From the NCBI GenBank assembly GCA_035484215.1, contig DATHPE010000008.1, forward strand, positions 27,326 through 91,325: DNA of 64,000 nt. Direction: 5' to 3'. The notes under the pieces were generated by a model. It was not told the origin of the DNA and ran no database searches. It saw only the letters and a program-made list of their open reading frames with translations. This document shows positions 5,612 through 16,647 of this stretch, in pieces (the first letter of the stretch is position 1; every line of letters begins with the position of its first letter). The translations under genes were made by a program, and so were the position numbers. Origin of the DNA: Solirubrobacteraceae bacterium. GTDB taxonomy: Bacteria > Actinomycetota > Thermoleophilia > Solirubrobacterales > Solirubrobacteraceae.

Positions 5612-5930
5612 TGGCGGGCGTGGTCGATCCGAGCACGCTGGCGGAGCCGATCGTGCAGGCGCCGATGGCCGGAGGGCCCGCCATGCCGAGCTGAGGATCG
5701 CCGTGAACGAGGTGGGCGGGCTGGGGTTCTTGGCCGCTGGCCATAGGCGGGCGCAGGATGTGCGCGAAGAGACGCCCGCGAGCGGCGAGGCAGGCGAGCC
5801 TGACATGCTTGTGGCAGTCAGCCGCTCTGTCCCGAGATCGGCACAGCTTGTGGTTTCCCGTGGAGGTCGCGCTGGCGCAGTTGCCTGGGGACGGGCTGAT
5901 GAGCTCGTTGACGCGCAATCGCCGCCGTGA
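5608..5930 (+). pseudogene. Nitronate monooxygenase-family remnant (frameshifted and truncated)
   Basis: Frame 1 reads PIVQAPMAGGP, then TGA at 5692-5694; the shifted frame continues ELRIAVNEVGGLGFLAAG. Together these match the family N-terminus; similarity then decays. Confidence 0.65.
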
Positions 5931-6035
5931 TCGCACGCTGAGGACGCCCAGCCCAAGCGTTGACTAGTCTTTCGAATCCGGTGAGGCGATGGGCGACACA
6001 GAAAGACGCGGGCTCGATGGCCGACGGCGGATCTC

Positions 6036-7412
6036 TTGACTAAGCATCGCAAGACGGCCAGGGTGATACCGGGCGCGCGACGGCTGATCATCTCAATGCG
6101 CGACCTCGGCTACGGCCCCACAGAGGCCATCGCGGATCTGGTCGACAATAGCGTCGCCGCGGGCGCTCATAGCGTGGAGATAACTCTCCACTTCGATGGT
6201 GGTGACTCCTGGATCCGGATCGCCGATGACGGTCGAGGGATGGACGCTGAGATGATCACGGAGGCGATGCGATACGGCGCGGCGCGCGATTACGGGGCCG
6301 ATGATCTCGGCAAGTTCGGGCTAGGCCTCAAGACGGCATCGATGTCCCAATGCCGTTGCCTCACTGTCGCGAGCCGAACCTCGAAGTCCGTGGCACGCGT
6401 GGAGGCGCGCCAACTCGACCTCGATTACATCGAGGACCACGATGCCTGGGACATCCTGATTGTCGGTGCTGCCGAACGCTCGGAGTCGCTCATCGGTCCC
6501 CTCAAGGAGCACCGCGGAACAGTTGTCCTCTGGGAGGACCTCGATCGGATCCTGACCTACCAGGACCCTGGCGGCGGTTGGGCGCGTCGTCACATGATCA
6601 AGCTCGCCGAGCGCCTTGACGCGCATCTAGGAATGGTGTTCCACAGATTTCTTGCTGGGGAGGTGCCGCGCAAGAAGCTCAAGATCACGATCAACGATGT
6701 GATGGTCGATCCGTGGGATCCGTTCGCACGCGACGAGCCGCAGACGGAGGCCGGCAGATCCGAGGATGTCGAGCTCAACACCGCCGCCGGTTCGGGGATC
6801 GTGCACTTCGCCCCGTACACCCTTCCCCCGAAGGCGAGCTTCAGCAGCGATCCGGCATGGCGGCGGATGTCAGGCCCAAATTCCTGGAATCGCCAGCAAG
6901 GATTTTACATCTACCGAGCCAGCCGCTTGATCCAAAGCGGTGGCTGGTCGAACATGCGCACCGCTGATGAGCACACCAAGCTCGCCCGGATTGCGCTCCT
7001 CTTCTCCCCCGAGCTCGATGCGGCCTTCGGGATCAACGTTGCGAAGATGCGAGTAACGCTTCCCCCCGAGCTGAGCGATCGAATCGAGGCACCGGTGAAT
7101 AGGGCGGTCAAGCGTGCCCGCACCGTTTACGACGCCAAGCCCGACCAAGCAAGGCCCCAGAGGCCTTCCGGGAAAGCGACGGACGCCGCGGCGGCGCGCG
7201 GGCCTGGCTCGCACGGGAACGGTCATGTGGGTGAAAGCATCGTGAGCGGCGACGAACACCGTGCGGTCGCGGCCACCATTACGGTCGCTCAGATGCGTCG
7301 AGAGGCTCTGGAGAGCGCCGCAGGCGCTGCAGGGGAGCAGGCCGCGCTCAGGAGGATCATCAACGCACTCTCCAAAGAGGCACCAGAGGTAGCGAGAGAC
7401 CTTGGCTTCTGA
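6036..7412 (+). CDS. MORC/MutL-like GHKL ATPase (HATPase_c_3 type, MzaA-like), copy A
   Basis: ADLVDNS (N box), DDGRGM (G1), LGKFGLGLKTAS (G2), GTVVLW, QGFYIYR..RLIQ.GGW. Confidence 0.9.
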   Translation: MTKHRKTARVIPGARRLIISMRDLGYGPTEAIADLVDNSVAAGAHSVEITLHFDGGDSWIRIADDGRGMDAEMITEAMRYGAARDYGADDLGKFGLGLKTASMSQCRCLTVASRTSKSVARVEARQLDLDYIEDHDAWDILIVGAAERSESLIGPLKEHRGTVVLWEDLDRILTYQDPGGGWARRHMIKLAERLDAHLGMVFHRFLAGEVPRKKLKITINDVMVDPWDPFARDEPQTEAGRSEDVELNTAAGSGIVHFAPYTLPPKASFSSDPAWRRMSGPNSWNRQQGFYIYRASRLIQSGGWSNMRTADEHTKLARIALLFSPELDAAFGINVAKMRVTLPPELSDRIEAPVNRAVKRARTVYDAKPDQARPQRPSGKATDAAAARGPGSHGNGHVGESIVSGDEHRAVAATITVAQMRREALESAAGAAGEQAALRRIINALSKEAPEVARDLGF

Positions 7413-10113
7413 ACCTGGCGCCGACGCCTACCTACGCGTCGTGAACACCGCACTGGACTCGGGTGTTCACCCATCCTTCGAGGACGCGCTGACCGCGATC
7501 GTGCCCGCGGCGATGCGAAGCACGGTCCGTGAGCTTCACGAACAGCAAACGACACAGCAGATCAAGCGAGTGCGCGGGGTGGCGGTGGATGGCGGTCCCA
7601 AGGCCTGGTTCGCCGGTTGGGATCCAGCCGAAAGATATTACTGGCCCCGTCAGCGACGGTATCTGCTCGACCAGATTGGCAGAAGCCCCGAGGCTGTCGA
7701 GGCAACAGATGACGACAGTGACCGCGTCCTGTCCTATCTCGAGGATCCACGCGACAGTGGTCCCGATACCTTCAATACACGTGGGCTCGTGATCGGCCAC
7801 GTACAGAGCGGCAAGACCGAGAACTTCAGCGCCCTCATCGCGAAGGCGGCGGATGTCGGTTATCAGGTCATCATCGTCCTCGCAGGGGTCCACAACGGGC
7901 TGCGCCAGCAGACGCAGCGCCGACTTGAGCGAGAGCTCGGGCTCGAGAACGTGACCCCCGGCGTCGGTCTTCCTGAGCCCGGTCTTCGCTGGAATAACCC
8001 GACTACTGCCGACCTGCACGGCGACTTCGTTCCGGGTACCAGCGACCCGAGCATCCTCCAGGGTAACGAGAAGGTCATCTTCATCGTCAAGAAGTGGCAC
8101 ACCGTACTCGAGAGGCTGATCCGGTTCATAAGAGATGCGGAGGCACCGTCAAACCTGCCGGTGTTGGTGATCGACGACGAGGCCGACCAAGCCTCTGTCA
8201 ACACAGGCGGCAACAGGCAGCCGCTCAGTGACCTGATCGATGCCGACGACCCGCCCGTGGACTTGGAGGACGAGACCGATCCGTCGACTACCAACCGCCT
8301 CATCCGTGACCTGCTGACCCTCTTTCCCCGCGTCGCCTACGTGGCCTACACCGCGACGCCCTTCGCGAACGTGCTCATCGACCACCGTGCGGAGGATCGC
8401 GAGGTCTACGAAGACCTATATCCCCGTGACTTCCTGCTCACGCTGTTCCCCCGCCCAGGATATGTCGGAGCTTCCCGCCTGTTCGGCCACGACAGCCTGG
8501 ACGGCACGCCCGAGGGCACGGCCGAGGGCCTCGATGTCATTCGATTCATCCCCGAAGTCGACCTGCCGATCGTGACTCCCCAGGGTGTGAAGCTTGTCGA
8601 CTTCGTACCCGGGATGCCGCCGTCACTCGACGAAGCGATCGTGGACTGGCTGCTGGCTACCGGTGGACTGCTGGCACGCGCGGGCCGTGACCACCCCTCC
8701 TCCATGCTGATCCACATCCACCAGCGTACCGACGTTCAGAACGCACTGGCGCCACAGGTCGCGGATGCGGTGCGCGCTCTGCGCAACGAGTGGCGTTACG
8801 ACAGAGACGGACCCCTGCGCGAGCAGATGCGGGCCCGGTGGGACGATGACTTCCGGACAGTCACCCGCCGGATAGACGCTGACCGCGACATGCAGTTCGA
8901 CGACATCGAGGAGCACATCGACAAACTGCTCAAGGATGGGGTGTCGGTGCTCGCGCTGAACTCGCGGTCGACAGACGTGCTCGATTACGAGCAGGACCCC
9001 AATATAAAGGCCGTGCTCATCGGTGGAAACCGCCTCTCACGAGGCATGACGCTCGAAGGCCTCACCGTCTCCTATTACGTACGCGAAACCCCCTACATGG
9101 ACACGCTGCTGCAGATGGGCCGCTGGTTCGGCTACCGTGAGTGGTATGTCGACCTGACACGTCTGTGGACAACGCCAACGCTCGCGAGCTGGTTCCGCGA
9201 CATATCCCTCCGCGAGGATGAGCTTCGCGAGCAGATCATGCAGGCTGAGCTCGAGCACCTCTCCCCGCTGCAGGTCGGCTACCGCATCCGGTCACATCCC
9301 GCGATGATGGTCACTGCCCAGAACAAGATCGGTGCGGGACGCCAAGAGCGGCTGTCTTACGCCGGTCGCATGATCCAGACGACACGTTTCCGACTCCACG
9401 AGCGAGAGTGGCTCGAGGAAAACTTCGCGGCCGCTCGCGAACTCTTGGGCGGACTCGGCGAGCCCGGGAGAGATCCAAGCGGGGTGCCGCTCTGGAATAA
9501 CGTCCCATGGGAGTCCGTTCACAGATTTCTGAGTCGCTACCGTACCGTGCAGGATCGGACCTCGTTCGATGCGGAGGCGGCAGCCAGCTACCTTGAGGCA
9601 CAGGTACGCCACCACGAGCTTGTGCGCTGGAGTGTCGCCATCGCGGAGCAGACGCGGCCCGTCGAGCGGCTCGGCTCTGTCGATTTCGAAATCGACGACG
9701 TCGAGCCTGTGAACGCAATCTCACGCACCCGCCTGAAGAGTGACATTAACTCGATTGGTGTCCTGACCAATCCGGCGCAAAGCGGCGGGGCGACGCGGCG
9801 AGGAGACGAGGAGATCGGACTCACCGACGAGGACATTCTGCGCGCACGGCAGGAATTCGGTGACGAGAAGTACGAGCGCATACGCGACGCGCTCCTCGCA
9901 CAGCGCACCTCAGAGGAAGGACTGCTGGTTCTCTACCCCATCAGCCGCTACTCGCTGCCTCGCCCGGCGAGCAGCACACGCCTCGCGCTGTTCGACGACC
10001 CCCACCAAGGGGGTGAGACCGTGATCGGAGTCGCGCTCGGCTTTCCGCCATCTGCCAGCGAGGCCACGATCGAATATGTCGCCGGTTCGGTTGCACAGGA
10101 GAAAGACGAGTGA
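7402..10113 (+). CDS. Z1-domain protein with SF2 helicase-like N-terminus (MzaB-like)
   Basis: GHVQSGKT, LVIDDEADQAS, YTATP, IGGNRLSRGMTLEGL, DTLLQMGRWFGYR; TTG start overlapping the MORC end. Confidence 0.9.
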   Translation: MASEPGADAYLRVVNTALDSGVHPSFEDALTAIVPAAMRSTVRELHEQQTTQQIKRVRGVAVDGGPKAWFAGWDPAERYYWPRQRRYLLDQIGRSPEAVEATDDDSDRVLSYLEDPRDSGPDTFNTRGLVIGHVQSGKTENFSALIAKAADVGYQVIIVLAGVHNGLRQQTQRRLERELGLENVTPGVGLPEPGLRWNNPTTADLHGDFVPGTSDPSILQGNEKVIFIVKKWHTVLERLIRFIRDAEAPSNLPVLVIDDEADQASVNTGGNRQPLSDLIDADDPPVDLEDETDPSTTNRLIRDLLTLFPRVAYVAYTATPFANVLIDHRAEDREVYEDLYPRDFLLTLFPRPGYVGASRLFGHDSLDGTPEGTAEGLDVIRFIPEVDLPIVTPQGVKLVDFVPGMPPSLDEAIVDWLLATGGLLARAGRDHPSSMLIHIHQRTDVQNALAPQVADAVRALRNEWRYDRDGPLREQMRARWDDDFRTVTRRIDADRDMQFDDIEEHIDKLLKDGVSVLALNSRSTDVLDYEQDPNIKAVLIGGNRLSRGMTLEGLTVSYYVRETPYMDTLLQMGRWFGYREWYVDLTRLWTTPTLASWFRDISLREDELREQIMQAELEHLSPLQVGYRIRSHPAMMVTAQNKIGAGRQERLSYAGRMIQTTRFRLHEREWLEENFAAARELLGGLGEPGRDPSGVPLWNNVPWESVHRFLSRYRTVQDRTSFDAEAAASYLEAQVRHHELVRWSVAIAEQTRPVERLGSVDFEIDDVEPVNAISRTRLKSDINSIGVLTNPAQSGGATRRGDEEIGLTDEDILRARQEFGDEKYERIRDALLAQRTSEEGLLVLYPISRYSLPRPASSTRLALFDDPHQGGETVIGVALGFPPSASEATIEYVAGSVAQEKDE

Positions 10114-11132
10114 ATACGGCCGACCTAGACGCAGCTTGGCGAGCCGTCGATACGCCGGCCGTGGCTGGTGGCCTAGCGGGCAAGCCCGCGCCCGGCCTCG
10201 ACCCAGAGCTCGGTGTACTACTGGCGCTCGACTCAAGGCAGCTCCGCCACATCCTCATCCCGGTCGATGAGGCGGCTGAGCCGCCGGCGACAGTCGCGAC
10301 CAAGGGCTTGGAGGTCACCGTTGATGATCTACAGGCTGATGACAGGCCTCCCAGACGCTACCTCGACATCGCGTGCCGCGATACCACGATGCACGCGAAC
10401 TTCACCGTGGTCGCCGCCGAGATCGTTGAGGAGCTGGGAGCCGAGGCAGGCAACAGCCGGAAGATACTTGAGCGTATCCTCGCCCGTTGGCGCTGGTTCT
10501 GGGACACGCCGCCGGAGGGGCTCACGGACGCGGAGGCCGTCGGCCTGTTCGGTGAGTTGTGGTTCTTGGAGTACTGGCTTGACCCGATCGACGATGCGGT
10601 GCTACAAGCGTGGACGGGTCCGAACCGCGACCGCCACGATTTCAAGTGGCCCGCCGCCTCAGTGGAGGTGAAGGCGACGCGAGCCCGAAGCGACGGGTCC
10701 GCGAGTCACCGTATTTCAGCACTCGAGCAGCTGGAAGATCCAGAGCGGGGTCAGCTGTATCTATTTAGCCTCCGCGTTAGGCCCGACCCGATTGCGGCGC
10801 ACAGTCTCAATGCGAGCGTCGAGCGGATCAGGCGAACGCTCTCCGATCGTGCCGAGCTATTGCATGCATTCGACGAACGGCTCGCTCTGCTGGGCTACGG
10901 CCCCGTGCACCGAGATCGATACGACGCGCCGATTAGAGTCGTCGCAGAGGAGCTATTCCGAGTTGATGGGCAATTTCCTCGTCTCACGAGGAGCTCTTTC
11001 GTCGAGGGTGAGGTGCCCAGCGGGGTGGACCGCATCGGATACGATCTGGAGCTCGTCGCGTGCGTGCGTTGGCGTATCGCCACCGCCCCGGGTTCCCAGG
11101 CGCGGCAGCTGCGCGAGAGCTTGCACTCATGA
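10110..11132 (+). CDS. PD-(D/E)XK nuclease-like protein (DUF4420 type, MzaC-like)
   Basis: GLFGELWFL, WTGP..DRHDF, SVEVKAT, HRISALEQL; GTGA overlap with Z1. Confidence 0.85.
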   Translation: MNTADLDAAWRAVDTPAVAGGLAGKPAPGLDPELGVLLALDSRQLRHILIPVDEAAEPPATVATKGLEVTVDDLQADDRPPRRYLDIACRDTTMHANFTVVAAEIVEELGAEAGNSRKILERILARWRWFWDTPPEGLTDAEAVGLFGELWFLEYWLDPIDDAVLQAWTGPNRDRHDFKWPAASVEVKATRARSDGSASHRISALEQLEDPERGQLYLFSLRVRPDPIAAHSLNASVERIRRTLSDRAELLHAFDERLALLGYGPVHRDRYDAPIRVVAEELFRVDGQFPRLTRSSFVEGEVPSGVDRIGYDLELVACVRWRIATAPGSQARQLRESLHS

Positions 11133-11163
11133 CTCCGCACGGTGCCTCACATGGAAGACGGGT

Positions 11164-11655
11164 CTATTGCGCCGAGCGCTGGTGGTCGACCTTCGCTGTT
11201 GCAGCCAGCGTGGGCTGTGCCACGAAGTTCCTGACCACCTGAGCAATGCGTGCTGCGGCATCCTCGGGTGGCTCATGCTCCCACACGCGGATTACGTGCC
11301 ATCCACGGGCACGCAGCGCCGCATCAGCCCGACGGTCGCGCTCCACGTTGGCTTCCAGCTTCTCCTTCCACCATCGGCCGTTGCTCTTAGGGATGGTTCC
11401 GTGCGACGGGCAGCTGTGCCAGAAGCATCCGTCCACGAAGACCGCGGTCTTTGTGGGTCCGAAGACGACGTCTGGTGTAGTGCGTAGGTCGGGCTCTGCG
11501 CGGCGATGGATTCTGAATCGTAGGCCACGCCGGTGAAGTGCGGAGCGCAGGAGTATCTCAGGTGAGGTGTTCCGCGACCGGTTGGCCTTCATGGTTGCTG
11601 CTGCCGCCGGTGATGACGCCGGAGGCGTGCCTTGCTTGGCGCTTCGTCCTAGCAT
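11164..11655 (-). CDS. vsr: Very short patch repair endonuclease
   Basis: MKANRSRNTSPE, LHRRGLRFR, PDVVF, VFVDGCFWHSCP, WKEKLEANVERD, VWEHE. Confidence 0.93.
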   Translation of the reverse strand: MLGRSAKQGTPPASSPAAAATMKANRSRNTSPEILLRSALHRRGLRFRIHRRAEPDLRTTPDVVFGPTKTAVFVDGCFWHSCPSHGTIPKSNGRWWKEKLEANVERDRRADAALRARGWHVIRVWEHEPPEDAAARIAQVVRNFVAQPTLAATAKVDHQRSAQ

Positions 11656-12952
11656 CGTTCACGTGCGCCGAATCGTCGGGATCCGCGTTGGCGAGACGAA
11701 GCAGCACGGTATCGCGCAGGTATGGATCATGTCCGAGGACATCGTCGAGCGCTGCGATTATGGCAGGCCAGTCGCGACTGATGCTTATCGCCTCTGGGGC
11801 CGCGCGGAACGGTTGCTCTTTGAGTCCCGGATCGATCGCGTCGAGGTGATCCCTGTAGCGCTCCTGAGCGACCGCTACTACTCCTGAGGCGACGGTCCGA
11901 AGCGCAGGTCTGAGCTCGTCGGGGATCGATACGCGCATCTTCGCGACATCCACCCCGAACCCCTGCTCCTCGCCGAGGGGCAGGTCAACGGCGATGCGGG
12001 CCAGCTTCGCGTGCTCGTCGAGTGTCCGAAGACGATTCCAGCCACCTGGCTGGATGAGCCGGTCGCGACGGTAGATATAGAAGCCTTGGTGTCGGTTCCA
12101 GCGACGAGGTCCGGCAGCGGCCTGATGTGCCTCGGGCGATGAGAACAACTGCTGACTGGGGAGCACATACGGTTGCACATCCACGGCGACGGTTCGCCCT
12201 TCCGAGTCTTGGTACTCGAGCACCTGCCGCGGCAGCGTCCGCGTGTGCTGCTCATGCCTCGCAAATGGATCCCAGGCCTCTATACGGTCGCCATTGAGTG
12301 TCAGGACCAGCCGACCACGGCCGTCGTACGCCGTTTCGTCGAGGAAGCGGTGGAAGACCATGGCGAGGTGGTCGCGTATCTCGTCCACAGCCGTCCGCAG
12401 CACACGTGCTGTCATACCCTCGGTGGGCCTGCGCGGAAGCACGCGGTCCAGGTGCTCCCAGAGAACTACCGTTCCGTGGCCGGTCTCCGCGATCGGGCCT
12501 GTGAGACGCTCGGACGCGGCGCGGTGTGATAGGCGTTCAAGTTCCCAGGTGTCGCGTCTCAGGACTTCGTCGAGGTCCCAGCGGCGGATCGCCCTCTTGG
12601 ATGCTCCGCGTTCTCGCGACGCGATCGTGAGGCGTCGACACTGCGACAGCGAGGCCGTCTTGAGGCCGAGGCCGTAACGCCCCAGTGCTTCAGGTGAGTA
12701 GTCCACGCGCGTTCCGTAGCGCATGGCCTCATCGAGCCTGGCTGCCGACATGCCGATGCCATCATCGCTTACACGGATCCATGACTCTGAGCCATCTGCC
12801 ACGACATCCACGTTGACCGTGCTGGAGCTGGCATCGATGGCGTTGTCAACAAGATCTGCGACCGCGCTCGGCAGGTCATAGCCGATGTCACGAAGGGAAG
12901 ACATGAGACGACCTGCCGACGGCACGATCGCAATGCGGGATTCACGGCTCAT
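11558..12952 (-). CDS. MORC/MutL-like GHKL ATPase, copy B
   Basis: SLRDIGY, ADLVDNA, DDGIGM, LGRYGLGLKTASLSQC, QGFYIYRRDRLIQPGGW; ATGA overlap with the MTase stop. Confidence 0.9.
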   Translation of the reverse strand: MSRESRIAIVPSAGRLMSSLRDIGYDLPSAVADLVDNAIDASSSTVNVDVVADGSESWIRVSDDGIGMSAARLDEAMRYGTRVDYSPEALGRYGLGLKTASLSQCRRLTIASRERGASKRAIRRWDLDEVLRRDTWELERLSHRAASERLTGPIAETGHGTVVLWEHLDRVLPRRPTEGMTARVLRTAVDEIRDHLAMVFHRFLDETAYDGRGRLVLTLNGDRIEAWDPFARHEQHTRTLPRQVLEYQDSEGRTVAVDVQPYVLPSQQLFSSPEAHQAAAGPRRWNRHQGFYIYRRDRLIQPGGWNRLRTLDEHAKLARIAVDLPLGEEQGFGVDVAKMRVSIPDELRPALRTVASGVVAVAQERYRDHLDAIDPGLKEQPFRAAPEAISISRDWPAIIAALDDVLGHDPYLRDTVLLRLANADPDDSAHVNDARTKRQARHASGVITGGSSNHEGQPVAEHLT

Positions 12953-14922
12953 GCGGCCACGAGCCCTTCATGTTTGGCCCGTGGGGAGGCCAAACTGCGG
13001 TCGGCCTGAGCGGCTCTCGTTCGGCCCGTCGCACACCCGACGTGCAGTGGGCACATTTCGCAGCGAGGTTTTGCCGGGCGGCACAGCTCGCGCCCGAGGT
13101 CGAGCAACGCCCGATTGAATTCGGCGTCAGGACCTGCCGATCCGGCGAGACGGTGCAGATCTAGCCTGACCTGGAACCGTCGGGTATCTCCGTGTCGGGC
13201 CAGTCTCCCAGCGACACGCGCGGTCGTCTGATCGAGCAGCACCTGTCGGCGGCCGAATGCGAAGGTCAGGGCTGCTCCCCCTGTGTACTCGCCAACACCC
13301 GGGAGCAGCGGCAGCAAGGTCTCGTCGTTGGGGACAGCCCCGTCAAAGTAGGTCACGAGATCCTCCGCAAGCGCGAGAAGCGCGACGGCGCGCTCCTGCG
13401 TCAATCCGATCTCGGCCAAGAGGCGCTTCGGGTCGTCGTGAGCCAGCAGTGCAGTGGGACGTGGGGCGATCTCGGATAGCCTCTCGAACGTCCCCTCGGC
13501 ATCGCTCGGGCGCATCCGTGCCAGCACCAGCTCCGCTGCAAGCACCAGCCAGGGATCGCTACCATCCCTTCTCCATGGCGGCGACCACGTGTCTGACGCT
13601 CGGCGCCATCCGACTAGGAGCTCCCGGAAGCGCTCGCGCTCCGGCGACCGAAGCCGGCGGGACTGTTCGAGTGTCGTCTTCACGGACCGGCCTATGGCCT
13701 CACCGAGAAGCACCGGCACCGCATTTCCAACCTGGCGATACCTGTGTGACTGTGTGCCGGCGAAGCGGAAGTTGTCCGGGAAGCTCTGCACCCTTGCAGC
13801 CTCGCGAAGCGAGAGAGTCCGGTGCTGGTCAGGGTGTATGTACCAGTAGCCGTCCTTCGCGATGTGAGCGGTGATCGTACGACACAGCTCGGACCAGGAC
13901 AGACGCTTGTACTTGTCTGTGAAGACGTCTGAGCGATAACGACGTAGACGGTCCGGCAGATCAATATAGGTCTGCCCCTCGCCCAGCAGCCTGAAGGCCT
14001 CCATATCGTCTGGCCGCACGTCGCGGCATATATGTTCGAGCACGACATCGTGGTCCTCGGTCGGGAGATCCTGTCTCATGAGCCGCTGGTAGTCGGAAGT
14101 CTGGCGCCTGACGTCGTAGGGGAGGCGCTCGCAGCGTTGTGCCCTGGGAATTGGCGGTAGGTCGCCGATCGCGTCGCGGAGGGTCGTATATTGATCCGTG
14201 GGCTCGGGCCAGCGAGGGCGTCGGTTTCCGTCGATCCCTATGAGAATGAGCCGTTGGCGATGCTGGGGAATCCCGTACCGGAAGCCGTCGAGGACACGTG
14301 CCTCGACTTGGTAGCCGAGGGCGTCCAGCGAGTCATGAAGGCCCATCAGAACGGCGCCGTCGTTCCAGCGCACGAGGTCGGGCACGTTCTCTACGAGTAC
14401 CGCTGCTGGCCGGAGCGCCTCGACGACCTTTACGAACGATGACCACAGGTCGGCCCTGTGGTCGTGGGCGGCACGCTCGCCCGTGTCGACCAAGTCTCGG
14501 ATCCGCGAGCTGCCGGCGCGGCTGAACGGTTGGCAAGGCACGCCGCCTGCCAAGAGGTCGATCTGGCCGACCCCCCATACATTTAGTGTCGTGAGGAACT
14601 CTGTCGGGTCTGACAGGTCGCCGCACCAGCTGAGCCCGGGGAGGTTGGCATCGTGTGTGCGCACGGCCCACTGGTCTGAGTCTGCTCCGGCGAGTACGTC
14701 GAAGCCGGCGCGCTCGAGGCCGAGCGAGAGACCGCCGGCGCCGCAGAAGAGCTCGATCGCCGTTGGGCGTCCCGACGAGCGCGAGACGAAGGAACGAATG
14801 GCCTGCAGATCGGAGCCGTCGGGTGTCTGCGGGTGCTTCGCTGGCCGCTTGGGTGCACCCCGATGGTGCGCGACCATAGGTCGCGCACCTGTGCCACGTG
14901 CATTTTGTGTCGAATCGCCCAC
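12949..14922 (-). CDS. dcm: DNA (cytosine-5)-methyltransferase fused to a C-terminal HhH-GPD (MutY/MIG-like) domain; start codon uncertain
   Basis: Motifs I (ELFCGAGG), IV (GVPCQPFS), VI (ENV), VIII (PQHRQR), IX/X (REAARVQSFP, QVGNAVP); then PWLVLAAELVLAR, LPGVGEYT and CX6CX2CX5C. Confidence 0.9.
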   Translation of the reverse strand: MGDSTQNARGTGARPMVAHHRGAPKRPAKHPQTPDGSDLQAIRSFVSRSSGRPTAIELFCGAGGLSLGLERAGFDVLAGADSDQWAVRTHDANLPGLSWCGDLSDPTEFLTTLNVWGVGQIDLLAGGVPCQPFSRAGSSRIRDLVDTGERAAHDHRADLWSSFVKVVEALRPAAVLVENVPDLVRWNDGAVLMGLHDSLDALGYQVEARVLDGFRYGIPQHRQRLILIGIDGNRRPRWPEPTDQYTTLRDAIGDLPPIPRAQRCERLPYDVRRQTSDYQRLMRQDLPTEDHDVVLEHICRDVRPDDMEAFRLLGEGQTYIDLPDRLRRYRSDVFTDKYKRLSWSELCRTITAHIAKDGYWYIHPDQHRTLSLREAARVQSFPDNFRFAGTQSHRYRQVGNAVPVLLGEAIGRSVKTTLEQSRRLRSPERERFRELLVGWRRASDTWSPPWRRDGSDPWLVLAAELVLARMRPSDAEGTFERLSEIAPRPTALLAHDDPKRLLAEIGLTQERAVALLALAEDLVTYFDGAVPNDETLLPLLPGVGEYTGGAALTFAFGRRQVLLDQTTARVAGRLARHGDTRRFQVRLDLHRLAGSAGPDAEFNRALLDLGRELCRPAKPRCEMCPLHVGCATGRTRAAQADRSLASPRAKHEGLVAA

Positions 14923-15166
14923 GGCCGATGGAAACTACACGGCGTCTAGGACCGATCGTGGGGCGGCACCGGCGGAGATCCTCGAAAGACCTGTCCAAGC
15001 CAGTCGGCCCAGCTCGCAGACGAGGTACGAGGACAGATGTCGGCGCCGGGTAGACCGAAGGCACTTGTTCGTGGAGGCCACCGCGATGGGGACTATGGCC
15101 GCCATTCACGCGAGGTCACGTCGGCCTATACCGACGCGGTGATGGCCGATGTGATGTCCTCCACCG

Positions 15167-15718
15167 ATGCCGAACGCAAGACCCGCGACCTATCCGATGT
15201 GGAAGTTCTACCCATCTCGCATGGCTGCCCCCGAGTGGGTCCCGCGGGTGATAGCCGTGTTCGCACATGCAGCGAGCAAGATCGACTCCAAGTCCAATCA
15301 CGGCGTTAGCAGCGATGCGGTACTCGCTGCACTCCGTCCCGCGCTCGTCGAGCTCGGCTTTGCGATTGAGTCCAGCAAGAAGAAGGCGGACAAGATCTGG
15401 CGCCCAGTGCTTTTTGGCGAGGCCGGCGAATCAGTGGTCGCCTACGAGGTGGACGGCTTCCACCAAGAGCTCGGCATCATCCTCGAGATCGAGGCTGGTC
15501 GCGGCGCGATGAACAATGCCGACTATCGCGATCTCGTGAGAAGTAGCCTGATCGTCGACGCCGAGTTCCTGATACTCGGCCAGATGCTCGAATACAGAGC
15601 TGGCAAGAAAGACGCGGTCACCCCGAGCTACAAGCGGACACGCGACCAGCTTGACGCGATCTACGCAAGCGAGCGTCTCAAGCTACCTTTCAAGGGCGTC
15701 TTGCTCGTCGGCTATTGA
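15167..15718 (+). CDS. Putative type II restriction endonuclease (BglII/BstYI/BamHI-like PD-(D/E)xE fold)
   Basis: 183 aa; YEVDGF..GIILEIEAG..YRDL..SY..LPFKGVLLVGY pattern; divergent from the C5-MTase. Confidence 0.55.
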   Translation: MPNARPATYPMWKFYPSRMAAPEWVPRVIAVFAHAASKIDSKSNHGVSSDAVLAALRPALVELGFAIESSKKKADKIWRPVLFGEAGESVVAYEVDGFHQELGIILEIEAGRGAMNNADYRDLVRSSLIVDAEFLILGQMLEYRAGKKDAVTPSYKRTRDQLDAIYASERLKLPFKGVLLVGY

Positions 15719-15991: not shown

Positions 15992-16327
15992 TCAGCCATG
16001 GCATTCGACGGCCACCTCGAGCGCCGCGCACACCTCCCGCATGCGGTCATCGCTCAGTCGTCCGAGGCGCTCCACGAGGACCGCGACCGACACGCTCTCC
16101 ACAGAGTCGAGGTTGATCGAGGATCGGCGGGGGACTGGATCGTCGTCGGGCTCTAGAACGACCTCGCTGGCCAGGCTGCGAATGGTGGTCGTGCATGGCG
16201 CGACAAGCGCTCGTCGCAAGCGAGGGATAGCCGCGTCGCGTGAGAGCACCACGACAGGCCGCCGGCCGATCTCCGGCAACTCACACCACCACATCTCTCC
16301 CCTCGCGGGAAGCGGGCCGCCGCTCAC
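15992..16327 (-). CDS. mazF: MazF/PemK endoribonuclease toxin
   Basis: [41 protein letters not shown]; GTGA overlap with the antitoxin. Confidence 0.9.
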
Positions 16328-16560
16328 GATGCCGCGGCCGCCTCTCGGAACGACGCCAGATCGCCCCACGCATCGGGCTCCTCGAGAGGGTGCTTGTCGT
16401 AGGCCGCGTATGCAGCATCGATCTCGGCCGCACGATGGCGGTCCAAGAGCGCCGCGAGCGCTTGGTCGAGGACGGCGGCATCCGTCAGCGGCGCGAGTGC
16501 CTGACGGGCCCTCTCCAAGAGCTGCTCGTCAACGGTAGTGCTCACCCTCGTCCTTGCCAT
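16324..16560 (-). CDS. mazE: Ribbon-helix-helix antitoxin (MazE5-like)
   Basis: [46 protein letters not shown]; directly upstream of mazF. Confidence 0.85.
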
Positions 16561-16590
16561 GCCACTATTATGCCACGTCTGTGCCATACT
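16555..16590 (-). promoter_or_regulatory. Leaderless mazEF promoter with TGCCAY repeats (probable antitoxin operator)
   Basis: Minus strand TGG-CATAAT-agtggc-ATG; four TGCCAY copies at 16555, 16560, 16571 and 16582. Confidence 0.5.
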
Positions 16591-16647
16591 TTGTCTGCCT
16601 TCGCAAACAAAGCCCGACACAGCCCGGCTGCCGTCGGCGCGCGCGCC

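Follow-up and report, generated by a model that had tools for sequence, protein, structure and literature searches.

What kind of system is encoded by the MORC-Z1-DUF4420 locus found at positions 6036 to 15718 of a 64,000-nucleotide stretch (the window) of a Solirubrobacteraceae assembly (GCA_035484215.1, contig DATHPE010000008.1)? Three genes on the forward strand (MORC, Z1 and DUF4420) face three on the reverse strand (Vsr, a second MORC and a C5 cytosine methylase), and a small nuclease-like gene diverges from the methylase. A first-pass annotation, made from the letters alone, had proposed that the locus might be an undescribed subtype of the Mza anti-phage system, devoid of an AIPR gene and enriched in three extra components. 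All seven genes were recovered with the coordinates and orientations given there, six of them with family matches and the small nuclease-like gene (183 amino acids, aa) as an open reading frame (ORF) without one. Here, I argue that the locus is an intact, horizontally acquired MORC-Z1-DUF4420 defence island of a soil actinobacterium, probably one of the Solirubrobacterales, in which two exchangeable modules lie tail to tail and would act as an ATP-dependent, restriction-modification (R-M)-like defence, a reading to which I assign a probability of about 0.6. Rather than a new kind of system, the locus represents a known kind in mosaic, variant form; what sets it apart is the fusion of methylase and glycosylase, the presence of a second MORC linked to the methylase, and a join of the two arms that is recent, mosaic and inverted.

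The forward arm (6036-11132, + strand) would be, as part of this reading and with the same degree of belief, the effector module, being predicted to consist of a MORC ATPase, a Z1 motor and a PD-(D/E)XK nuclease. Its first gene, MORC1 (6036-7412, +), encodes a prokaryotic MORC-type GHKL ATPase of the clade named B below (Pfam HATPase_c_3, 1.7e-28; PADLOC MzaB, 7.8e-62), with intact ADLVDN, DDGRGM and GLGLKTAS motifs and an intact MORC S5 signature (QQGFYIYRASRLI); gene callers place its start at 6036 or 20 codons downstream, and its nearest solved relative is the N-terminal domain of MutL (1e-5). The second gene (7402-10113, +; Pfam Z1, 9.3e-63; PADLOC MzaC, 6.7e-106) encodes an MzaC-like, Z1-domain motor resembling the superfamily 2 (SF2) helicases, in which the Walker A (GHVQSGKT), DDEAD, TATP and Z1 (DTLLQMGRWFG) motif positions are invariant or nearly so across 39 homologues. 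Its AlphaFold2 (AF2) model, with a predicted local distance difference test score (pLDDT) of 80, matched in a whole-chain Foldseek search only generic SF2 proteins, helicases and translocases such as Rad54, Mfd and HsdR. The third gene (10110-11132, +; Pfam DUF4420, 1.9e-52; PADLOC MzaD, 3.5e-15) encodes an MzaD-like PD-(D/E)XK nuclease, the 'novel RE' of Iyer 2008, with E149, D177, E186-V-K188 and Q207 invariant in 15 homologues covering all the classes of loci described below; the 4-nt start/stop overlap between this gene and Z1 points to one operon. Neither the Z1 nor the DUF4420 protein matched any solved chain in a sequence search of the PDB.

The reverse arm (11164-14922, - strand) would represent, within the same favoured reading and judging from its domains, a cassette for modification and upkeep, made of the methylase-glycosylase, MORC2 and Vsr. 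The fusion gene (12949-14922, -) begins with the C5 cytosine methyltransferase domain (13636-14922, -; Pfam DNA_methylase, 4.3e-61, aa 55-415), in which motifs I, IV, VI, VIII and X are present (FCGAGG, GVPCQPFS, ENV, QHRQR and GNAVPV); gene callers start the protein at Met16, for a length of 642 aa. Its C-terminus of about 230 aa (12949-13635, -), overlooked in the first-pass annotation, is a MutY/Mig/EndoIII-like HhH-GPD glycosylase domain: a phmmer search of the PDB retrieved MutY (8dvp, 4.8e-21) and Mig.MthI (1kea, 2.2e-19), and the TIGR01084 mutY model matched aa 432-635 at 4.3e-25, under its equivalog cut-off. The four-cysteine cluster of the Fe-S type (C-x6-C-x2-C-x5-C) is present, the catalytic Glu and Asp align to those of MutY, and the C-terminal domain of MutY is absent from the fusion protein. 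EndoIII carries a Lys where the glycosylase motif GVGEYT has a Tyr, and the domain is thus predicted to be a monofunctional glycosylase. The same fusion is encoded in three of the loci collected for comparison (numbered from L001), namely L015, L022 and L023, and long Dcm genes occur also in L024 and L108. A metatranscriptome contig carries G instead of the C of the window at position 13084, inside the fusion gene; it is the sole difference in any of the contigs aligned to the window and presumably a strain variant. Downstream of the fusion lies MORC2 (11558-12952, -; Pfam HATPase_c_3, 1.1e-28; PADLOC MzaB, 4e-67), another prokaryotic GHKL ATPase of the MORC type, this one from clade A, with intact GHKL motifs and MORC S5 signature. 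The last gene of the arm encodes Vsr, the very-short-patch (T:G) mismatch endonuclease (11164-11655, -; TIGR00632, 8.9e-39, 132 bits and therefore above the cut-off of 98; Pfam Vsr, 2.9e-18), for which the gene caller prefers Met22 (window 11592) as the start; its gene runs into the 3' end of MORC2, an overlap found in L022 too. One methylase is thus accompanied in the same cassette by two predicted T:G repair activities, the fused glycosylase and Vsr. Overlaps of at least a few bases between its genes give each arm the look of a single operon, and all six proteins of the two arms are full-length, with catalytic or signature motifs intact.

That the locus is an acquired island is suggested by its composition: G+C drops from about 72% in the window and flanks to 63-65% between approximately 5.6 and 16.6 kb, a stretch bounded by a DSBA-like gene on one side and by a DUF4349/ECF-sigma (extracytoplasmic function sigma factor) pair on the other. 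The long ORFs with coding-type codon bias in this low-GC stretch are exactly those listed in the first-pass annotation. No flanking direct repeats, tRNA or integrase were found at the island borders; the inverted repeats I1-I4 detected in the window are the two MORC paralogues themselves. From the DSBA-like gene through to ECF sigma, the arrangement recurs without a difference (100% identity) in a contig of 108 kb from ENA and in one of 15.7 kb from Logan, the latter belonging to a soil run, and the junction between the arms is covered without mismatch by a 776-nt contig (10613-11388) from a second soil metagenome, belonging to another study. Two assemblies and an independent metagenome contig hence rule out that the meeting point of the arms is an assembly artefact. 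Two apparent 'joints' were disregarded, since they rest on 21-nt sides of short contigs. In a soil metatranscriptome, error-free contigs fall on MORC1, Z1, Vsr/MORC2 and the methylase, and none extends past approximately 15305-15306.

How close is the locus to Mza? The reference used here is mzaABCDE of Gao et al. 2020, in the form of the PADLOC and NCBIfam models; mzaABCDE has been described as a validated defence system (PMC9523054). The proposed relatedness was borne out by PADLOC matches to MzaB, MzaC and MzaD in the forward arm: homologues of the GHKL ATPase, Z1 helicase and DUF4420 nuclease of Mza occur in the window in unchanged order, and Dcm and Vsr usually lie near Mza loci too. It differs from Mza in the absence of AIPR (MzaE) and of the sigma-like MzaA, in the addition of a second MORC and of the methylase-glycosylase fusion, and in the clade to which its Z1-adjacent MORC belongs. 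The lack of an AIPR gene, as originally perceived, holds across the whole 64-kb window, where tblastn with three AIPR proteins of related loci returned nothing (best E 0.37); moreover, no island ORF matches PADLOC MzaE, a model matched by a control AIPR protein at 3.7e-225, and the island has no unassigned space for a gene of AIPR size (about 600 aa). Likewise, no island ORF matches the sigma-70-like PADLOC MzaA (control sigma-like protein, 5.7e-58), and the nearby ECF sigma gene has host-like GC and no PADLOC match. The methylase had been counted among the Mza components; this proved incorrect, MzaA in PADLOC being sigma-70-like (PMC9523054), though Dcm accompanies most Mza loci. The expectation that standard models would score the locus only in part was correct, the NCBIfam bit scores lying far under the equivalog cut-offs (MzaB 255-260 vs 850, MzaC 436 vs 1500, MzaD 115 vs 420), and the window Z1 shares no more than about 33-35% identity with the Z1 proteins of AIPR-positive loci. 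Because AIPR and MzaA are missing and three NCBIfam equivalog cut-offs are failed, the locus is not filed here as Mza. Annotation pipelines that need AIPR or equivalog scores probably miss AIPR-less loci of this class.

Seven Solirubrobacterales loci (L001-L006 and L015) encode a Z1 protein 61-90% identical to that of the window, and all are laid out on one strand in the order Dcm::HhH-GPD, MORC(A), MORC(B), Z1, DUF4420, with short gaps or overlaps; none of the seven contains Vsr, AIPR or the 183-aa gene. Partial duplication of the MORC1 N-terminus (L001, 8264-8539) and methylase or Z1 frames broken into two to four pieces (L003, 5382-7265; L005, 5269-7123; L006, 10001-12731) were observed among them, and could reflect real decay or long-read assembly errors. 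More distant loci, with Z1 about 50% identical, come from an Acidipila and a Steroidobacteraceae metagenome-assembled genome and comprise, in this order, Dcm, Vsr, MORC, Z1 and DUF4420, again without AIPR; Nitrospira and Betaproteobacteria are also named in the list of Z1 matches, at about 51% identity. The Acidipila operon (Dcm-Vsr-MORC-Z1-DUF4420; L016, 130-6066) adjoins a terminase, a ParB-like methylase and a serine recombinase, and appears to ride on a prophage or an integrative element.

These relatives were placed in a wider survey, for which metagenome contigs were scanned with an alignment of eleven diverse Z1 proteins; 80 loci were kept (L026-L105) and annotated together with the earlier ones, about 100 Z1 loci in total, by means of home-made profiles built from the collected sequences. 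Only loci with enough flank enter the class counts, Dcm is taken as proximal when within about 11 kb, and MORC clades derive from a quick neighbour-joining (NJ) distance tree. Class 1 (16 loci including the window, from several phyla) is characterised by a clade-B MORC beside Z1 and DUF4420 and by the absence of AIPR; Dcm occurs in all of them (16/16) and Vsr in half (8/16). Of the eight that lack Vsr, seven are the Solirubrobacterales loci, which have the fused glycosylase in its place; in the eighth, L027, a convergent Dcm alone was detected. Class 2 gathers 45 AIPR-positive loci, with a clade-C MORC in 43/45, Dcm in 38/45, Vsr in 29/45 and often a sigma-like MzaA. Class 3 (12 loci) carries the DUF6339 set, and class 4 (3 loci) a long ATPase. 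The NJ tree splits the MORCs into Dcm-adjacent (clade A), Z1-adjacent and AIPR-less (clade B), and MzaB proper (clade C); MORC1 clusters with the Z1-adjacent MORCs from AIPR-less loci, and MORC2 with those that come after Dcm::HhH-GPD genes. Among the sampled loci with sufficient flank, AIPR accompanies the clade-B MORC in none of 16 cases and the clade-C MORC in all 43, and Z1 identity to the window divides the loci in the same way (39-90% for clade-B loci vs 30-38% for clade-C loci). Judging from these sequence comparisons, the AIPR-less class 1 is a recurrent sister class of Mza with its own MORC clade, apparently unnamed in the literature as far as could be found. The notion of an undescribed AIPR-less subtype needs correction on this point: the arrangement is not unique to the window, being shared by 16 loci of the Z1 survey and having precedents in 2008 (PMC2292703) and 2022 (PMC9523054). 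Vsr, viewed at first as an extra component, is instead a usual companion of every class in the survey. Class 1 offers a natural minimal version of an Mza-like system, reduced to methylase, T:G repair, MORC, Z1 motor and nuclease, and indicates that AIPR and the sigma-like MzaA are dispensable for the persistence of such operons across phyla.

Which of the described systems, then, does the locus most resemble? Operons combining MORC, a Z1 helicase and a novel RE, frequently with a cytosine methylase and Vsr, were predicted in silico in 2008, and the window has every feature predicted for the MORC 'type 3' R-M operon in that paper (PMC2292703). The MORC S5 motif GhXhhpXXRhl is matched by GFYIYRASRLI in MORC1 and GFYIYRRDRLI in MORC2, the SFII helicase motif DThhQXuRhFG by DTLLQMGRWFG in Z1, and the RE-fold E-D-ExK by E149, D177 and E186-V-K188 of the DUF4420 protein; a cytosine methylase and Vsr are present as well. 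The same paper also records MORC and methylase neighbourhoods without helicases; it is computational only and, in the sections available, does not separate AIPR-less from AIPR-positive loci, nor single out two-MORC loci or the glycosylase fusion (PMC2292703). A core of Z1, DUF4420 and Dcm without AIPR, associated with repair endonucleases, was later put forward by Miller et al. 2022 as candidate 'Type I' (PMC9523054). The window shares with it the Z1, DUF4420 and cytosine methylase core, the lack of AIPR and the repair-endonuclease association, but has a Z1-adjacent clade-B MORC in place of the extra proteins of that type: profiles from L023 and L024 detected in the window none of its ~700-aa MORC-like (~670-aa), ~300-aa and DUF6339 proteins. 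The identification of the window with Type I was rejected on this ground.

For the action of the Z1 protein the best available model is provided, by analogy, by CglI, a system with a C5 methylase in which the DEAD-Z1 H-subunit is an ATP-driven translocase on double-stranded DNA (dsDNA), without which the separate nuclease subunit does not cut (PMC5861437). As in CglI and NgoAVII, the window encodes a C5 methylase, a DEAD-Z1 motor (Walker A/B, Z1 domain, SF2-fold model) and a separate nuclease; unlike the window, CglI lacks a GHKL ATPase, and its nuclease domain differs from the PD-(D/E)XK domain of DUF4420. The CglI nuclease subunit is B3-like/PLD-type. No PLD-type match, and hence no CglI-type R-subunit, was found in any island ORF, the DUF4420 protein being the sole nuclease of its operon. 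The reverse arm, in turn, recalls Mig.MthI/M.MthTI and the Dcm-Vsr pairs, where a C5 methylase has its own T:G deamination-repair enzyme; here, however, methylase and glycosylase form one protein, Vsr is added, and a MutL-like MORC lies between the fusion and Vsr.

The two arms have different closest relatives. Window positions 5953-11123 are 79.4% identical at the DNA level to L015, the similarity starting 83 bp upstream of the MORC1 start, and positions 11272-14958 are 79.4% identical to L022, in inverted orientation. Protein identity matrices group the window MORC1, Z1 and DUF4420 with L015, L001 and L002; the matrices of methylase and MORC2 group the relatives differently, with the window as an outlier at 49-59%. 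From such differing groupings it follows that the methylase and its neighbouring MORC move as a unit, which recombines with the effector module. MORC2 is 83% identical to its counterpart in L022, 66% to those in L023 and L024 and about 51% to those of the Solirubrobacterales loci, and its tree matches that of the methylase and not that of Z1; its closest homologues (66-83%) sit after a full-length Dcm::glycosylase and before Vsr, and are not the Solirubrobacterales ones. In L022 the cassette (methylase 84%, MORC 83% and Vsr 64% identical to the window) precedes MzaB-like, Z1, DUF4420, AIPR and a small sigma-like gene, a set that makes up a canonical, AIPR-positive module of Mza. In L023 and L024, whose cassettes are 61-70% identical to the Dcm::glycosylase-MORC-Vsr cassette of the window (61-66% for Vsr across L022-L024), it precedes Z1, DUF4420, ~670-aa, ~300-aa and DUF6339 proteins, the set of Miller 2022 'Type I'. 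In L108 (5766-14692) Dcm and a clade-A MORC are followed by genes for 380, 628 and 334 aa, DUF6339 and Vsr, with neither Z1 nor DUF4420; these genes may represent another effector module served by the same cassette. The clade-A MORC co-segregates with the methylase::glycosylase in 12/12 loci carrying it (the window, L001-6, L015, L022-24 and L108).

On these sequence relationships MORC2 is best described as part of a portable Dcm::glycosylase-MORC(-Vsr) cassette, which occurs also by AIPR-positive Mza modules, and not, as first thought, as an extra component of an Mza subtype; by the same comparisons, the join of the arms in the window is recent, mosaic and inverted. The co-occurrence of the families of the two arms in other genomes, on which the original proposal depended, was found, the seven Solirubrobacterales loci included. 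The convergence of the arms is equally real, although nothing special: the layout derives from the mosaic join, and Dcm and Vsr, which occur in every orientation, are convergent to the Z1 arm also in L019, L027, L034 and L039. Throughout these exchanges the target-recognition region of the methylase aligns gap-free and is 61-87% identical to all relatives, with a conservation equal to or greater than that of the catalytic motifs, which suggests a shared or very similar specificity across cassettes and would make swaps harmless. A swapped methylase of different specificity, with MORC2 as specificity subunit, was also considered; it is not needed, given that gap-free and conserved region. Swapping of the cassette under a conserved target-recognition region provides a ready design to ask whether the Z1-nuclease arm reads the methylation mark.

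If the two modules do work together as an R-M-like defence, the methylase would mark host sites, and the Z1 motor would act on unmarked incoming DNA, hydrolysing ATP and translocating along dsDNA as the CglI H-subunit does, with the MORC dimer as a MutL-like, ATP-gated clamp that would license the cut by the DUF4420 nuclease. The glycosylase domain and Vsr would clear the T:G mismatches that arise from deamination of 5-methylcytosine and thereby lower the mutational cost of the methylase. MutL stimulates Vsr in Escherichia coli, and the R-M logic of such operons, with GHKL+S5 modules as common partners of nucleases, is set out in Iyer 2008 (PMC2292703). The methylase-linked MORC may help this repair, as MutL does with E. 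coli Vsr, or may pair with the Z1-linked MORC. The 12/12 co-segregation favours the role of repair helper, and it is tempting, if tentative, to see in the clade-A MORC a dedicated MutL-like partner of the fused glycosylase and Vsr, rather than a restriction subunit, within a portable methylate-and-repair cassette. If true, a cassette with its own MutL analogue would be useful in lineages that lack MutS/MutL, and could be plugged into at least four effector modules. By analogy with MutL-alpha, the two MORC paralogues may otherwise form a heterodimer, through which the Z1 motor would be linked with the methylation cassette. In either case, two-MORC loci offer a route to the role of prokaryotic MORCs, relatives of the eukaryotic MORC chromatin ATPases.

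Several observations weigh against an R-M-like defence made of both modules. The modules exchange freely, and one locus (L108) has the cassette without Z1, so the two arms could act independently. MORC ATPase activity is an assumption, given that motif I in every MORC of the family has an Asp at the position of the catalytic Glu of MutL; DNA carry-over could be the source of the metatranscriptome contigs; the survey sample is biased towards relatives of the window and relies on home-made hidden Markov models; and Mza itself is said in a preprint to act on single-stranded DNA phages by a mechanism described there as unknown (10.64898/2025.12.11.693642).

The opposite view, namely that a methylation-plus-deamination-repair cassette was simply juxtaposed to an independent MORC-Z1-DUF4420 module which does not read its methylation, would account for the mosaic blocks with closest relatives in different loci, for the incongruent trees of the two arms, for the pairing of the cassette with three other downstream modules, one of them without Z1, and for the MORC and methylase neighbourhoods without helicases noted in Iyer 2008 (PMC2292703). 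I consider it unlikely, for Dcm accompanies all class-1 loci and 38/45 AIPR-positive ones, the five genes lie on one strand with short gaps or overlaps in seven relatives, and the target-recognition region is kept across swapped modules, a pattern to be expected of an effector that relies on one and the same mark. A mobile methyl-directed repair system, serving a lineage that lacks MutS/MutL and not immunity, has the parallel between its components (MutL-like ATPase, UvrD-like helicase, MutH-like nuclease, Vsr, Dcm) and the MutL-UvrD-MutH/Vsr-Dcm set, stressed in Iyer 2008 (PMC2292703), together with the two T:G repair activities of one cassette and the similarity of MORC1 to MutL. It is nonetheless improbable: a MutS-like mismatch sensor is absent, the distribution is patchy across phyla, and island character, a toxin-antitoxin pair and phage or plasmid neighbours hardly suit a repair function; besides, the AIPR-positive sister is reported as a validated defence (PMC9523054) and the neighbouring loci are defence islands. 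Still harder to sustain is decay into a non-functional remnant that has lost AIPR. The locus is rearranged relative to its collinear relatives, some of which have split methylase or Z1 frames; yet its six ORFs are full-length with intact motifs, AIPR is missing from the whole of class 1 and was thus not lost here, metatranscriptome contigs fall on both arms, and the sequence is identical in independent samples.

The defence island reading must also be set against a classical Type II R-M pair, formed by the C5 methylase and the divergent 183-aa gene (15167-15718, +), with Vsr, and adjoined by an accessory module that is Mza-like. The 183-aa protein has no match among the Pfam, NCBIfam or PADLOC models; its AF2 model (pLDDT 90.6) has OkrAI as best Foldseek match (probability 0.99, template modelling score 0.52), followed by BstYI and BamHI, matches of moderate strength, and the invariant E68, D96, E107 and E109 fit a BamHI-type active site. 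Its divergence from the methylase is a further point for such a pair, and one canonical Mza plasmid locus does have a trio of Type II restriction endonuclease (REase), Vsr and Dcm alongside. Its 665 homologues are, however, 60-73% identical, and so high a conservation is unusual among Type II REases. In four independent and unrelated contexts the homologues have no methylase, Z1 or MORC beside them: two lie by TrwC relaxases, one by a KAP NTPase and one among housekeeping genes. The gene is missing, the window apart, from the approximately 100 Z1 loci and from the relatives of the cassette, and metatranscriptome depth is 0.56 upstream of 15305 and 0 after, compared with most arm bins being covered. 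A Type II pair is accordingly very doubtful, and the identification of the 183-aa gene as the cognate REase of the methylase was rejected, no methylase link having emerged in the four contexts and the Z1 loci. In two of the contexts the homologue is followed by genes for 194-197 aa, which have no counterpart in the window, and in this sense no conserved partner was found. The gene appears, from its predicted model, to encode an orphan restriction-fold nuclease, and is probably a neighbour in the island and not part of the system; of the type II-like nuclease originally listed as a component, the fold survives, being OkrAI/BstYI/BamHI-like, and the membership does not, in view of the contexts examined.

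As for the remainder of the island, the 425 bp between the DSBA-like gene and MORC1 (intergenic 5612-6035) contain no convincing gene, no remnants of an older methylase or MORC were found upstream of MORC1, and a scan of promoters and terminators gave nothing exceeding shuffled expectation. At the right edge of the low-GC island, downstream of the 183-aa gene, a PemK/MazF-family toxin gene (15992-16369, -; Pfam, 2.6e-16) and an overlapping antitoxin-like small ORF upstream of it (16324-16620, -; weak VapB match, 0.0038) form a type II toxin-antitoxin pair, which is a neighbour in the island and not part of the system.

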